In this document: positions 12,664 to 36,436 of the stretch, in pieces | Layout: each line of letters starts with the position of its first letter | Numbering within the stretch: the stretch's first letter is position 1 | DNA from: an uncultured Candidatus Poseidoniales archaeon | Lineage (GTDB): Archaea; Thermoplasmatota; Poseidoniia; Poseidoniales; Thalassarchaeaceae | Assembly (NCBI GenBank): GCA_964645485.1 | Contig: CAZXZO010000002.1 | Coordinates: 25,108-89,107 of the forward strand | Direction: 5' to 3' | Length of the DNA stretch: 64,000 nt | Made by a program: the position numbers and the translations under genes | The notes under the pieces: model-generated | What the model was told of the DNA's origin: nothing | The model's input: only the letters and a program-made list of their open reading frames with translations | Databases searched by the model: none

Positions 12664-14016
12664 CTAATCGTTGCTTCCACAGTTGGAACAAGCAAGCGAG
12701 CCCATTGGGTCCCATGCTGGTAATACAACTGGCTTGGTATCTAGTGCCTTTAGCATGGCTTCTGTGAGATATGATTTCGGTGCTGCAATCTCAAACATAT
12801 ATTGGTCAAACCAAGAATCATTCATTGTGTAATATCCATCTTCACCGGAATTCTTTGCCCCCCATGAATTTTCAACACGCCACTTGCGAATACCGTTCTT
12901 ATCTACATCAACACCGGTGAACAGCATTGCGTGAGTCATCAGCGAATGATGATAGTCCAATCTGTTCTTTTTGTCTAGTCCGAACTCAATTCCATACATC
13001 TCTTCGAACTCAAACAGTTTAGCATCCCAAATCCCGAGTTTGCGGTGCATGTGTTTGCCGACATCACAACCCATCCAAACGGTGGTGCCATCTTCCAATA
13101 ATTTTCTAGTTACAGTTTTCATTTCTTCAATTGAAATATTCAGATACTCAACAGGCGGTCCACCGACCACATTTTGCAGGAAATCAACGGTGTATGTTTG
13201 CATCAATTCGTTTCTTGGGTCGTTTACCAGACAGACATAATCATTGTAATCAATAGTTACGAATTCTTCTAAGAATTCATGCGGCGTCATAGTTCCCCGA
13301 GTATGGTGATCGTTGTCTTTGTCCCTCCATGACCATTCAAACTCTGTAGGAGGAGTTCCGAGGTGAATGCACAGCAGTCTCCAAACGTCCTCCATTCGTT
13401 TATTTTTGTGCGCTCTAGCCTCAGCCTCTGAGCCACCATCATCAATCATTTTTCGGATTTCACTTGCAATTGAGCGCACGAGTAGGCGCAAGTTAGCATT
13501 CATCCAGCGAGTTGAGGAAGATGATTGAGATTCAGGGTAAGCAGATTTTGGCACCATTCCATGCTTGTTGATGACATTAATCGCCATGTTCCACTGGCCA
13601 CCATCCTCACTTGGATTATCAAGAATAAATCCAATCGTCCGGTCATCTAAGTCACGGTCTGAGGTGACAATCATTGCTTCCAAATTGTGGTTCGCCCGTT
13701 CAAATTTGTCCCAAAAATGTACAAATGCTTGGCTAAACTCAAATTCTTTGACATTCATTTTTTCCATAGCACCTGGCCGCATCAAATTCAATACAGCAAA
13801 TAGCCAACAGCGCCCACTGGCTTTTTGATTGGTTACTTTCCATTCATCAATCTTGGTTGAGAAGGTAAAATCTGTGGAGGCAACAACTTCACGAGAAAGT
13901 GCAATATCCTGAACCGTAGTTTGGGTCACTGCATTTTGAACTATTCTTGCATCTTTGTCAGCAGAGAACTCTTTTCTCAATCTATTGATTTCCTTAATCG
14001 TCATTTCACCGGTCAT
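12664..14016 (-). CDS. pepC: Aminopeptidase C / bleomycin hydrolase (C1B cysteine peptidase)
   Basis: QKASGRCWLFA (catalytic Cys), MTHAMLFTGV (His), WRVENSWG (Asn). Confidence 0.93.
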   Translation of the reverse strand: MTGEMTIKEINRLRKEFSADKDARIVQNAVTQTTVQDIALSREVVASTDFTFSTKIDEWKVTNQKASGRCWLFAVLNLMRPGAMEKMNVKEFEFSQAFVHFWDKFERANHNLEAMIVTSDRDLDDRTIGFILDNPSEDGGQWNMAINVINKHGMVPKSAYPESQSSSSTRWMNANLRLLVRSIASEIRKMIDDGGSEAEARAHKNKRMEDVWRLLCIHLGTPPTEFEWSWRDKDNDHHTRGTMTPHEFLEEFVTIDYNDYVCLVNDPRNELMQTYTVDFLQNVVGGPPVEYLNISIEEMKTVTRKLLEDGTTVWMGCDVGKHMHRKLGIWDAKLFEFEEMYGIEFGLDKKNRLDYHHSLMTHAMLFTGVDVDKNGIRKWRVENSWGAKNSGEDGYYTMNDSWFDQYMFEIAAPKSYLTEAMLKALDTKPVVLPAWDPMGSLACSNCGSND

Positions 14017-14102
14017 TGTAACAACCTCGCCCAACCCCACGGTAACTCGGTCAGGTCTAAGTGATTACTACTCTGAAAGTAAAATCAATTGTTACAGATT
14101 CT

Positions 14103-14654
14103 TCAATTATTCAGTCTTCGCACTGCAATAGCCATCATACCAAGAACGCTGATGGTTGCAATAGTTGTGAGTCCAGGCAAACCGTCACTATCATCATCAC
14201 AACCGTCACCTCCAGACTCAAGACCAGCAACCCAGCAGTCTGACCAAACTTTTCCGCCCCATCCAGTTTCAGGGTAAGTGCTTGAATTTCCATCTGAATA
14301 CTCTAGTGTGATACGATAATTCACGTACGAGTGGTCATTAGCAGGAGTCATCGTAGTAACCCAAGATTCTCCACCATCAGAAGAAGCCAAATCTTCAGGT
14401 ACAGGAGCATCGCAAACACCACTATTGAGACAAACCTGCCAAATCCAAGAAACGCTGGTACCATTGTTAGCAGCATTCTCATCCAGTGTTACAGTAATTT
14501 CGAATTCTACACCATCACTTGATTGAGATGGGGTGCTTATAGCAGCGATAGGTGTGCCCTCGATGTCTAAATTTTTGTTGACACCTCCTACATCTGCAGA
14601 AACCACAGGCGCCAATAGAAGTAGGCAAAGAACGAGCGCCAACCCTCGCTTCAT
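14103..14654 (-). CDS. Small secreted protein with C-terminal TM anchor
   Basis: Signal peptide MKRGLALVLCLLLLAPVVSA; C-terminal GLPGLTTIATISVLGMMAIAVRR. Confidence 0.7.
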   Translation of the reverse strand: MKRGLALVLCLLLLAPVVSADVGGVNKNLDIEGTPIAAISTPSQSSDGVEFEITVTLDENAANNGTSVSWIWQVCLNSGVCDAPVPEDLASSDGGESWVTTMTPANDHSYVNYRITLEYSDGNSSTYPETGWGGKVWSDCWVAGLESGGDGCDDDSDGLPGLTTIATISVLGMMAIAVRRLNN

Positions 14655-32765: not shown

Positions 32766-32976
32766 CAAAGGGAAGCATCCACCAAGTTACCACTCAGGGG
32801 TACCCGACCTCTCACCGCGGGCGCAGCGGTGAGAGAGTTTTCGGCTTCGCCGCGCTGCGTTTGAATAACAAGATTTCAATTGTCACAGGCCCATTTTCTT
32901 GTTGTTTACCCTGTGAAACCGAACCCAGCTTTGACCGTATATTTGAAGGTGGATTGGCTTCCCCCTCAACTTACAC

Positions 32977-33058
32977 GCAGGGGTACCCGAGCGGTCAAAG
33001 GGGGTGGGCTCAAGATCCACTGCTTAGTGCTTCGCAGGTTCGAATCCTGCTCCCTGCA
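32977..33058 (+). tRNA. tRNA-Leu (CAA), long variable arm, no intron, CCA not encoded
   Basis: Acceptor GCAGGGG/TCCCTGC-A; anticodon arm GTGGG-CTCAAGA-TCCAC; T arm GCAGG-TTCGAAT-CCTGC. Confidence 0.97.
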
Positions 33059-33545
33059 CTTTGATTACTCATGCCTTCATCGTGCAGAGAGCGCAAAACG
33101 CTAACGTCGAACCTGCTTCGCAGTGCATCAGGTTGCTGTGCAACCTTCGCATCCTCAACCTTCCCTCTGCTCTCAGACGCTTCCATCAGTCCAGATTGAG
33201 GATTTTGAATCCTGCTCCCTGCATCAGATTTCATAAGATTTCAACAGATTTAATCAGGACAGGATTCGAACTCCGCGAGTTTTAATCCATCTTACTTCAA
33301 CAAAACTCGCTGGAGTTTGCCGCTGGACTGACCAAAGGGAAGGAAGCGTCAGACCGTTTGAAATCCTGCTCCCTGCACTTTGATTACTCATGCCTTCATC
33401 GTGCAGAGAGCGCAAAACGCTAACGTCGAACCTGCTTCGCAGTGCATCAGGTTGCTGTGCAACCTTCGCATCCTCAACCTTCCCTCTGCTCTCAGACGCT
33501 TCCATCAGTCCAGATTGAGGATTTCGAATCCTGCTCCCTGCACCA
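33042..33545 (+). repeat. tRNA-Leu 3'-end repeat array: four copies of (G/A)AATCCTGCTCCCTGCA separating units A-B-A
   Basis: Copies end at 33058, 33223, 33377, 33542; units 33059-33223 and 33378-33542 differ at one position; last copy followed by CCA. Confidence 0.93.
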
Positions 33546-33657
33546 ACCAATTTCATTCATTCTCCTTCCTCACTGCAAATTATTCTATCTAAATGAATGT
33601 TGACAAAGGCAGTAAAGGTAAGTGAATTCTCCAATATAAAAATCACTTTTCCAATTG

Positions 33658-33687
33658 AACAATATGTGGTTAATTCATCATATTGTT
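33658..33687. promoter_or_regulatory. Inverted repeat, candidate metal-responsive operator upstream of the P1B-ATPase
   Basis: AACAATATG-N12-CATATTGTT about 40 bp before ATG 33728. Confidence 0.5.
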
Positions 33688-33727
33688 AGAGGCACACATT
33701 CAAACAGGGGAGGCAATAGGTTGGGTT

Positions 33728-36436
33728 ATGCGCAAGCGTGAGGATGAATCGGAGGGATTCATCTTTTTCGAAGATGATGGTGAAGATGAATCGGCAACAT
33801 CTGAAGATAAAATCATCAAAGATAAAATTGCTGAGGATACTGACTCTCAAGTGGATTCAAATGATTTAGTTTCACTTCCCAAAGACCAAATAATTCCCCT
33901 GAAAGATATTTTGCCAAAAAGGGATGAGGAGTATTTTTCTGCTGAATTAGTTACCGACGGTGTTCATGATTTTGAATGGCCAATCAAAGGAATGGATTGC
34001 CCGGATTGCGCAATGAAAGCGAGTTCTGCTACAATAAAAAATCCAGCAGTTGCCTCATGTAAAATAAGCCATGCTGAAGGAATGGTCCGTATCGGGATTG
34101 ATCTTGGAAAGGGTGACCTTTCTAGAGCTAATCGTATATTATCAAGCCTAGGCCATGAGCCAGATGTTGATTGGTTCAAATTATCTGGTGTTACTGTTGA
34201 ATCGGTAATGAAGCGGCAGGGTTGTGACCAACCCTCTTTGAAGCGACTCCTCCAATCTGCTCCAGGTGTACTCGATGTTCACTTAGAAGGTAACGATATT
34301 ATGATCCAGCGGCCACCTTCTTTGTTGCCGCTCACTCGTCAAGAACACGAACATGCACTAGAGAGAATGACAGGGAAAAATGTTGAGTTGGTAAAAGGTG
34401 ATATTTCCGGGCTTTCAACCGAACATTGGCGCTTGATTGGTGCATCCATCGCATTTGTTCTATTACCAATTATTCTCCTCTTAGAAGCATTTTCAACTCC
34501 AGCAATACTAATCGGTGGAATCGGGCTTTTTGGCACAATTATTGGTGGTTATAGAATGTTCTTAGAAGCGATTGCGAGTGTCAGGAATCGTGTTCTTGGA
34601 TTTCAAATACTTACCACAATGGCAGTAATCGGTGCGGTAATTTTACAACACTGGGTCGAAGCATTAATGGTTGTATTATTAGAATCTGTAAGTGGTCATT
34701 TAGAGTCATCAGCCCTTGTTCGGGCAAGAAATGCAATGCAGGGTGGATTAGACCGCTTACCCCGAGTGGCAAGAGTAGTTTCAGGCATGAATCCACGCTT
34801 GGGTACGGTCTCAACGACAACATTTAGCACAGGTTTATCCCCATTATCATCGCTTGAACCAGCGCGTCCAGAACCCGAAGAAATTCCGATTGAACTGGTT
34901 TTTCCTGGAGCAAAGGTGGAGGTCAGAAGTGGTGAGTTGATTCCAGTAGACGGAATTATCACCGAAGGTGTTGGGCAAATAGACCGGGCTCCCTTGACTG
35001 GGGAAAGTGTACCAATAAGAGTCGAAGAAGGAGACTTCGTAGAGGCGGGGTTAGTGCTTCTGAGGGGGCCAATATTGATTGAAGTTTCAGCCGTTGGTGA
35101 GGATACAACTCTTTCAAATTTAATTGACAGTGTACATACTTACCGAGATAAGCCTCCTCGACTCCAATCTTCCGTAGAATTGTTCACGAAATTTTGGGTA
35201 CCTACTGTACTGATTGGAGGCATTGCAGTTGCTCTGTTCTATGGTGAATGGATGATGATGTTGCTACTGTGGGTAGTTGCTTGTCCCTGTGCCTTGCTTT
35301 TAGCGGCTCCAATTCCACACGCAACTGCTCTATCCACTGCAGCCCACCAAGGTGTAATTGCGCGTGGAGGTGATGTTCTTGAGAGGGCGGCTAGAGTTGA
35401 TTTAGCATTACTCGACAAGACTGGAACATTGACAAGTGGACATCCTCAACTTAGTTCATTAGTCCTAGCAGATGGTGTTTCTATGCTTGAGGCACTTTCT
35501 CTTGCTGCTGGGCTAGAAGCACGAAGTAACCATCCATACGCATCAACAATCATGTTGGCAGCCCAGAGTGAAGAGGCTCAACCAATTGAAATTAAGTCAT
35601 TAACAGATGGTGTAGCAGGAGTAAAAGGGAAAAATGGCAGGTCAATTGTCCGTCTAGGAAGCCAAGAGTGGCTATCTAATGAAGGAGTTAACATCACAGA
35701 TGCCCTAGAAGATGCAGCTAATGATGCCCGAATGAAAGGGCTTGGTGTGTCAATTCTTGCCAAGAGTAATGATGCGATTGCCGTATTTACTTTCATCAAT
35801 GATGACTTACGGGTTGGTGCAAAATCTCTCGTCAATGATTTAACCGAACTTGGTATCTCTGTGGAATTACTTTCCGGCGATTCTCAACCAGCAGTTGAAG
35901 CACTTGGGAAGGAACTTGGAATAGATTCAAAATTTTGTCGTGGGGACATAGACCCAGATGGCAAGGCTATCTGGGTAGAGCGCCGCAGTCAAGCACTTTG
36001 CACAATGATGGCCGGAGATGGCTTCAACGATGCTGCAGCACTAGCGGCTGCGGATGTAGGGGTTGCAGTTGGAAGTGGAGAGAGTGTTAACCTTGAAGCC
36101 GCAGACGTTCTAATTCCATCGAATGACCCACGCATATTGTCTCGCTTAATTCGTCTATCTAAAAAGACGAGATTCATTGTAAATATTAATCTAGCAATTT
36201 CTCTAGTTGTCACCTTCGTCTTAGTGATTTCAGTACTTTATCGCTGGCATGATAGCCTAGCGCTAGGGGTGTTTGTTCACGAAGCGAGTGCGTTGATTAC
36301 CTTACTAAATGGAGTCTGGTTAGCAGATGAAAATATGAGTAAATTAGGTACAGTTGGCAATTTGTTTGAACAACTTGGAAAGGATTGCGTAGAGGCATGG
36401 AGTTCCCTAAAATCAATGGTAACTGCAAGTAATTAA
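33728..36436 (+). CDS. Heavy-metal translocating P1B-type ATPase
   Basis: GMDCPDC metal-binding domain, LTGES, ACPC, DKTGTLT, HP, GDGFNDAAAL. Confidence 0.93.
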   Translation: MRKREDESEGFIFFEDDGEDESATSEDKIIKDKIAEDTDSQVDSNDLVSLPKDQIIPLKDILPKRDEEYFSAELVTDGVHDFEWPIKGMDCPDCAMKASSATIKNPAVASCKISHAEGMVRIGIDLGKGDLSRANRILSSLGHEPDVDWFKLSGVTVESVMKRQGCDQPSLKRLLQSAPGVLDVHLEGNDIMIQRPPSLLPLTRQEHEHALERMTGKNVELVKGDISGLSTEHWRLIGASIAFVLLPIILLLEAFSTPAILIGGIGLFGTIIGGYRMFLEAIASVRNRVLGFQILTTMAVIGAVILQHWVEALMVVLLESVSGHLESSALVRARNAMQGGLDRLPRVARVVSGMNPRLGTVSTTTFSTGLSPLSSLEPARPEPEEIPIELVFPGAKVEVRSGELIPVDGIITEGVGQIDRAPLTGESVPIRVEEGDFVEAGLVLLRGPILIEVSAVGEDTTLSNLIDSVHTYRDKPPRLQSSVELFTKFWVPTVLIGGIAVALFYGEWMMMLLLWVVACPCALLLAAPIPHATALSTAAHQGVIARGGDVLERAARVDLALLDKTGTLTSGHPQLSSLVLADGVSMLEALSLAAGLEARSNHPYASTIMLAAQSEEAQPIEIKSLTDGVAGVKGKNGRSIVRLGSQEWLSNEGVNITDALEDAANDARMKGLGVSILAKSNDAIAVFTFINDDLRVGAKSLVNDLTELGISVELLSGDSQPAVEALGKELGIDSKFCRGDIDPDGKAIWVERRSQALCTMMAGDGFNDAAALAAADVGVAVGSGESVNLEAADVLIPSNDPRILSRLIRLSKKTRFIVNINLAISLVVTFVLVISVLYRWHDSLALGVFVHEASALITLLNGVWLADENMSKLGTVGNLFEQLGKDCVEAWSSLKSMVTASN

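Follow-up and report, generated by a model that had tools for sequence, protein, structure and literature searches.

We find that the tRNA-Leu(CAA) gene in the window, a 64,000-nt stretch of DNA from a Thalassarchaeaceae archaeon (MGIIb, order Poseidoniales), is flanked by an array of small non-coding units that is real and mobile on an evolutionary scale; the enzyme that moved them is not identified. Each insertion supplied its own copy of the tRNA segment running from the T-loop (about A58) to the discriminator. Consequently, the gene stays intact while it loses its encoded CCA. With moderate confidence, we favour the explanation that the array consists of three miniature, gene-less inserts of the integrase type that were mobilised in trans, together with a fourth unit, E5, on the 5′ side of the gene.

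The gene occupies positions 32977-33058 on the forward strand (ARAGORN; Rfam tRNA, 51.5 bits). Its final 16 nt, AATCCTGCTCCCTGCA, are found in four exact copies at 33043-33058, 33208-33223, 33362-33377 and 33527-33542. There are no others in the 1.94-Mb genome, and the reversed-pattern control gave zero matches. A preliminary description, made from the sequence alone, had the last 17 nt recurring three more times; the recurrence held, but the exact common length is 16 nt, since copy 3 has A at the 17th base where the other three copies have G. Its further claims that the units measure 165, 154 and 165 bp, that the two A units are one base apart and that CCA follows only the last of the four copies (33543-33545) also held. 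The features of the locus are the following.

32794..32976, + strand: 5′ unit E5, 183 bp, recognised by repeat search and by its exact absence in nine congeners; it holds the first 14 nt of the tRNA (TCAGGGGTACCCGA) at 32794-32807, a 10-bp hairpin at 32809-32835, then CGGCTTCGCCG, and at its 3′ end the TATA-like stretch and leader that now precede tRNA-Leu(CAA).
32977..33058, + strand: tRNA-Leu(CAA), the present functional gene, with repeat copy 1 at 33043-33058 and no encoded CCA.
33059..33223, + strand: unit A1, 165 bp, with repeat copy 2 at 33208-33223; 96.5 bits to the A-family model R2.
33083-33092 (TGCAGAGAGC) and 33107-33115, in A1: inverted copy of the tRNA 3′ end.
33131-33145, in A1: hairpin GGTTGC-TGT-GCAACC.
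33152-33160 / 33195-33203, − strand, in A1: stem of an H2-type hairpin with loop 33161-33193, matched by model R1 on the minus strand.
33224..33377, + strand: unit B, 154 bp, with leader 33224-33259 and repeat copy 3 at 33362-33377; 122 bits to R1.
33260-33271, in B: inverted copy of the T-loop and T-stem.
33267-33283 / 33301-33319, in B: hairpin H1.
33319-33323 / 33346-33350, in B: stem of hairpin H2, with the conserved loop TGGACTGACCAAAGGGAAGGAA at 33324-33345.
33378..33542, + strand: unit A2, 165 bp, equal to A1 except for C at 33526; its repeat copy 4 (33527-33542) is the original tRNA 3′ end.
33543..33682, + strand: original CCA (33543-33545) and native trailer (ACCAATTTCATTC...), matching the empty sites and running to the P-type ATPase gene.

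The two A units belong to a 184-nt repeat, in which 33043-33226 equals 33362-33545 with one mismatch (T at 33207, C at 33526). The A-B-A units displace the original end of tRNA-Leu(CAA) by 484 bp downstream, and the array takes up most of a 917-bp intergenic gap between the gene of a 2097-aa surface protein upstream and a P-type ATPase gene (33683-36436) downstream. The array contains no credible ORF, just unsupported mechanical ORFs of 42-100 aa, and an Rfam cmscan of the array at E up to 1 matched the tRNA alone, with no RtT.

We checked the assembly by read depth, using Logan unitigs from two runs (X1 and X2) that hold 96% of the sampled words. These runs are possibly the source samples, so that the comparison tests the assembly only and is no independent replication. 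The left flank unitig (to 33059 / 33072) has a depth of 251 in X1 and 160 in X2, the unitig joining A, B and A (33176-33391) has 243 and 192, and the right flank unitig (from 33495) has 247 and 159, whereas the A unitig (33043-33205) reaches 466 and 343. With A at about twice the depth of B and the flanks, A is present twice per genome and B once. In the unitigs, the T and C variants of A each run on into a different neighbour. In the contigs of these DNA runs, no joint between an A end and an A start appears. Elsewhere in the same genome, 100-N scaffold gaps lie inside the arrays at tRNA-Leu(GAG) and tRNA-Phe (G000:C18, 1293-1391 of the retrieved locus, and G000:C19); these arrays break short-read assembly, and copy numbers there are therefore undetermined.

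The orthologous loci of congeners, retrieved through the adjoining ATPase gene, include eight with an empty 3′ site (G017, G014, G009, G016, G013, G005, G010 and G019). At an empty site the tRNA-Leu gene encodes CCA; it starts about 27 nt past the upstream stop codon and ends in ...CTCCCTGCACCA, followed by AAACCA(A)TTTTTCAC. The trailer past the window's last copy (CCA, then ACCAATTTCATTC) is the empty-site trailer, slightly decayed, and the window's distal end matches CCA plus AAACCAATTTTTCAC at the empty sites of G014, G017 and others. Because eight empty sites carry the tRNA with its CCA and the same trailer, the array is an insertion and its distal copy is the original gene end. The preliminary description had proposed serial insertion with the original end pushed distally, and the empty sites of these eight congeners support it. 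On the 5′ side, E5 is precisely absent at its boundary from nine congeners (G004 and the eight with an empty 3′ site). Consequently, E5 brought in the TATA-like stretch and the leader of the present tRNA. The boundaries are precise on both sides of the gene.

Filled loci differ in what they contain. The window has E5 and A-B-A; G011 has E5, A-B and a 27-nt stub; G004 has B alone, without E5; and G001 has several B-type units. An alignment across relatives had been proposed in the preliminary description, and carrying it out gave these empty sites and this variable unit content (A-B-A, A-B plus stub, B alone, none). On a tree built from 2 kb of the adjacent gene, the filled G004 clusters with the empty G016 and G013 (support 100/100), the filled G011 clusters with the empty G014 and G017 (support 85-91), and the window's own genome, G000, stands apart. 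The filled loci are interspersed with empty ones, and the tRNA-Leu(CAA) locus has therefore undergone at least three gains or precise losses. As a separate observation, the otherwise empty G009 carries about 190 extra bases located 313 nt past the tRNA-Leu CCA, before the ATPase gene; they contain neither a tRNA-end repeat nor an A or B scaffold.

The units are members of genome-wide families, which the preliminary description had missed, along with the inverted tRNA-end copy in every unit and the matching 5′ unit. We defined the families by a scan of the unit-bearing genome and two covariance models, R1 for B and R2 for A, which have 13 and 10 matches there, respectively. Units stand behind 10-11 of the 34 detected tRNA genes. 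B-type units follow Leu (CAA, GAG and TAA), Pro TGG, Thr TGT and Ser (GGA and CGA), and A-type units follow Leu CAA, Phe, Pro GGG and Gln CTG. Each family has a fixed orientation with respect to the tRNA; the B-model match that follows tRNA-Gly(TCC) is reversed and, like the A units, has its core on the strand opposite the tRNA. Tandems of a single unit type follow tRNA-Leu(TAA), Phe and Asn, and at tRNA-Thr a TTTTT run lies between the tRNA and its units. CCA is encoded by eight of the 34 tRNA genes, none of which is followed by units, and all of the 10-11 unit-bearing genes lack a proximal CCA. CCA also follows the distal repeat copies at Pro(GGG) and, in G011, at Leu(GAG).

Every unit has a 3′ terminus that copies its own tRNA's 3′ end, as well as an inverted copy near its start. 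Both the direct and the inverted copies follow the local tRNA, at Leu CAA, GAG and TAA, Pro, Phe (17/17) and Asn (20/20), with inverted-copy agreement of 22/22 in another genus. The inverted copy reads CAGGATTCGAAC for Leu CAA and, for example, TAGGATTTGAAC where the tRNA reads TTCAAAT, and it agrees better with the tRNA than with the unit's own end. The repeat begins at the same T-loop position across all loci, and at some loci it runs on into the trailer, with repeats in G011 reaching 43 nt. Both tRNA-Leu(GAG) and tRNA-Leu(TAA) are preceded by E5-like units, each carrying its own tRNA's 5′ fragment. Within the genus, A and B co-occur in the same five of 16 genomes searched, and B extends to further genera of the family. 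Between loci, the copies are merely 76-85% identical, which gives no sign of recent jumps between loci.

The B units fold into two hairpins, a long H1 with a hypervariable top and an H2 whose variable stem closes a conserved core. This core consists of TGGACTGA, a GC-NNN-GC mini-hairpin and then GARGGAA(G). Across 24 B-family units, 91.5% of cells are paired compared to 72% in shuffles, 130 cells have changed on both sides compared to 40 in shuffles, and a control with slid partners pairs at most 44% of cells; both hairpins contain G-U pairs on the motif strand. These figures lean towards the model, to which the alignment had been fitted; a count made before model building has the same trend. 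Within the explanation that we favour, A and B are not decayed leftovers, but two families built on a covarying hairpin with the conserved core H2. In B, this core shares its strand with the tRNA; in A it is on the complementary strand, which makes a strand-fixed RNA role of both families by tRNA read-through unlikely. Two side observations concern the H1 tops. The orthologous B units of G000 (window 33267-33319) and G011 (1432-1569 of its retrieved locus) are 96% identical in the 3′ half and wholly different in the H1 top, and a few types of H1 top are common to several genera, as if module-swapped.

Beyond these genomes, the H2 core is found in more than 119 metagenome contigs with GC contents from 0.30 to 0.75. 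Some of these cores have a tRNA gene 44-66 nt away on the opposite strand, and many are bacterial, being intergenic and beside unrelated housekeeping genes. The 23-nt core, TGGACTGAGC-NNN-GCGARGGAAG (window 33324-33345), was observed conserved in intergenic hairpins from low-GC to high-GC bacteria and in archaea. The sequence GCGAAGC, contained in the core, is an unusually stable DNA mini-hairpin. The signature motifs of A and H2 have zero matches in the 2.9 million contigs of IMG/VR, a bacterial H2-type element is unmatched in PLSDB, Rfam has no match at the motif in 12 motif-bearing metagenome loci, and the literal motif string appears in no paper of the literature searched. A loose pattern, GAACTCCGCG-N20-50-CGCTGGAG, returned only chance matches from GC-rich bacteria when run against viral and genome collections.

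We looked for an enzyme that could move the units. The window's one tyrosine recombinase is of the XerA type (601-1647, − strand) and lies 32 kb from the array, and no integrase gene or credible ORF is found within the array, both as the preliminary description had claimed. The XerA-type gene is also the sole tyrosine recombinase (PF00589) in the 82%-complete genome; close relatives of its product bear the name Candidatus Thalassarchaeaceae (MGIIb, order Poseidoniales). The XerA type is present once per genome in nearly every genome of the family, and four of the five unit-bearing congeners have XerA alone. No TnpB, IS110, reverse transcriptase or Cas1 was found in the 82%-complete genome itself, and no HUH (Y1_Tnp) transposase in the five unit-bearing congeners. 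With no integrase beyond XerA in the genome, the earlier claim that the units were mobilised in trans is plausible and not shown.

Candidate integrases exist in relatives. Charybdis elements are integrase-bearing and insert beside Poseidoniales tRNA genes (bioRxiv 10.1101/2025.08.03.668216), and G011 has two integrase-bearing elements in tandem at tRNA-Ala(TGC) (G011:C35, 2732-14291). The first of these spans 10.25 kb between 16-nt repeats, ATCCCCCAACGTCCAC, that start at the same T-loop position as the units. This repeat geometry is the same as that of the units and therefore fits an integrase acting in trans. We note that the final codons of the second G011 integrase ORF (13038-14291, minus strand) overlap a repeat copy. 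The integrase elements of G011, G146, G155 and G013 contain no B-type unit by R1, and those of G011 hold no A or B scaffold. With these scaffolds missing from the G011 elements and the motifs absent from IMG/VR, no helper is linked to the units.

The mechanism that we infer from these data is as follows. Three gene-less modules would have stacked into the 3′ part of tRNA-Leu(CAA) and the fourth, E5, into its 5′ part, by conservative site-specific recombination of the tyrosine-integrase type. The crossover would fall in the T-loop/acceptor block for the three stacked modules, and for E5 in the D-arm block. An enzyme working in trans is envisaged, with the integrases of Poseidoniales tRNA-targeting elements as candidates or, less likely, the host XerA. 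The second A copy would be very recent and may stem from a re-insertion or from unequal exchange between copies of the repeat. Read-through from the tRNA promoter might also transcribe the units, which would then be set free as small RNAs; no RNA run was found to contain the stretch. Several observations count against this integrase-type reading. At 154-183 bp, the circles are small for a recombinase to act on, the inverted target copy and the covarying hairpins are foreign to known attP sites, and no candidate gene for a mover was found in the 82%-complete genome.

Competing explanations differ in how much of this evidence they can absorb. An assembler's duplication of a single A unit is all but excluded; unit arrays elsewhere in this genome do break assembly, with 100-N gaps in C18 and C19, but in both runs the A unitig is twice as deep as B and the two flanks. 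It is very improbable that local tandem duplication alone, by slippage or unequal crossing-over and with nothing inserted from elsewhere, created the array. The single difference among the 165 bases of A1 and A2, the same-type tandems behind tRNA-Leu(TAA), Phe and Asn, and the ability of 16-nt repeats to support unequal exchange all speak for it. However, duplication cannot make A or B out of empty-site sequence, and it leaves unexplained the homologous scaffolds that stand behind different tRNAs with matching ends. The empty sites therefore refute local duplication as the origin of the units, and it may account just for the second A copy.

An unlikely but tenable rival is that the units are small RNAs akin to the tRNA-linked repeats (TLRs) of E. 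coli, kept for their co-transcription with the tRNA and their release by processing enzymes, with insertion explaining their origin only. The repeated tRNA end and the inverted copy would then pair as an acceptor/T-stem-like processing signal, a part of this rival for which there are no RNA data. In its favour, the E. coli TLR architecture is matched (PMC8144298), H1 and H2 covary like RNA helices with G-U pairs on the motif strand, B units are always on the tRNA strand, and the ancestral T-run terminator past the CCA has now decayed. Against it, the conserved H2 core of A is on the strand opposite to the tRNA, a TTTTT run separates tRNA-Thr from its units, the inverted copy is a closer match to the tRNA than to the end of its own unit, the closest relatives manage without units, and Rfam, RtT included, is unmatched. 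The preliminary description had offered an array cut by tRNA-processing enzymes as its alternative, which agrees with the proposal made for the E. coli repeats (PMC8144298); it is neither shown nor excluded. We consider it unlikely that the units are an undescribed, hairpin-directed mobile element without an integrase, in which a structure-specific enzyme reads the H2 core and copies the target end in both orientations. Such an element would suit the 23-nt H2 core carried on variable stems in more than 119 metagenome contigs, bacteria included. A loop that stays conserved while its stems vary is typical of hairpins recognised by proteins, and integrase chemistry leaves the inverted target copy unexplained. 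However, there is no candidate enzyme (no HUH Y1 in the five unit-bearing congeners; no TnpB, IS110 or Cas1 in the genome itself), and the repeat geometry and fixed orientation suit integrases well.

A bolder reading remains possible. The units may belong to an undescribed class of hairpin-core elements spanning two domains of life, with the core 5′-TGGACTGA-(GC NNN GC)-GARGGAAG-3′ on a variable stem. In archaea, these would occupy the ends of tRNA genes and reproduce the target end both directly and inverted, moved or bound by an unrecognised factor that is not a classical integrase, and they might also be tRNA-linked structured RNAs.

Compared to known systems, the array is closest in mechanism to tRNA-targeting integrative elements and their gene-less derivatives, and closest in architecture to the E. 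coli TLRs. Tyrosine integrases reportedly use the T-loop sublocation at tRNA genes (Reiter 1989, Williams 2002). Like tRNA integrative elements and their cis-mobilisable, gene-less derivatives, the array has a direct repeat from the T-loop to the tRNA end, a gene rebuilt proximally, an original end displaced distally, tandem stacking, precise empty sites and a fixed orientation. For membership in the integrase type, the 3′-tRNA direct repeat with a distal original end and the precise empty sites are met, and an integrase gene within the array is not. The array differs from such elements in its size (154-183 bp), its lack of any gene, its covarying hairpins and inverted target copy, the presence of the same families behind many tRNAs with re-tailored ends, and the lack of an identified helper integrase.

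The E. coli TLRs (Egan and Landy 1978; Rudd 1999; RrA/B/F in PMC8144298) come as 1-5 units that follow a tRNA or rRNA gene and each terminate in its last 18-19 bp, and some are processed sRNAs (PMC8144298). The array resembles them in having 1-5 units of about 100-180 bp directly behind the gene that end in its last 16-19 nt, and that are mostly without known function. The positional definition of a TLR (PMC8144298) is met by three units with 16-21 nt identical to the tRNA 3′ end, but the homology feature is not met, cmscan at E up to 1 finding the tRNA alone. In contrast to TLRs, the array is archaeal, shows no sequence or Rfam similarity to them, has an inverted copy, an H2 core and a 5′-side counterpart, and varies in presence among close relatives.

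Small hairpin repeats offer a looser comparison. The MJRE repeats of Methanocaldococcus and the REP/BIME repeats resemble the H2 elements as small, gene-less hairpin repeats, which in bacteria are scattered intergenically; in contrast, the array is without the GTAG head and without a RAYT gene, is tied to tRNA ends and copies its target. Membership in the MITEs is not met, as the inverted repeat reproduces the local tRNA and changes with it, and the orientation is fixed per family.

About one-third of the detected tRNA genes in an abundant marine archaeon bear these modules, which rewrite the ends of tRNA genes by loss of the encoded CCA and replacement of the promoter. The modules come and go among close relatives and are therefore a real force on the structure of Poseidoniales tRNA genes. 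They probably cause breaks in assembly at the tRNA loci of metagenome-assembled genomes, and they are a natural archaeal counterpart of the unexplained tRNA-linked repeats of E. coli. The hairpin core, common to bacteria and absent from Rfam and from the literature searched, hints at an unrecognised partnership with a protein or an RNA.

Several narrower candidates were tried and rejected. An omega-RNA or bridge-RNA guide is opposed by the lack of a TnpB zinc-ribbon and an IS110 DEDD domain in the genome, retro-duplication by the failure to find an RVT_1 domain in the genome, and an HUH hairpin transposase by the missing Y1_Tnp in five unit-bearing congeners. B is not a split tRNA or a tRNA half, having no T-arm and no part of an anticodon arm, and a C/D-box or H/ACA guide was discounted, by eye only, for the missing C box and the wrong size. 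Casposons are known to stack in tandem in Methanosarcina. Like the array, casposons and mini-casposons target a tRNA 3′ end, with duplications of 14-16 bp (14-15 bp for casposons), but the array has no casposase, and the repeats that run on into the trailer at some loci, up to 43 nt in G011, are too long for a casposase duplication. Casposon membership is not met: the genome itself has no Cas1, and the one Cas1 found in 21 congeners, the only one in the genus, is fused to Cas4 and has Cas12, Cas2 and a CRISPR array as neighbours, within a type V CRISPR-Cas locus. That locus (G001:C35, 1-7453) is a minor observation in its own right. It lies directly behind tRNA-Phe and encodes a 1475-aa Cas12b-like protein (C2c1 RuvC domain), the Cas4-Cas1 fusion and Cas2, with the CRISPR array at the contig end; CRISPR-Cas is unusual among marine Group II archaea.
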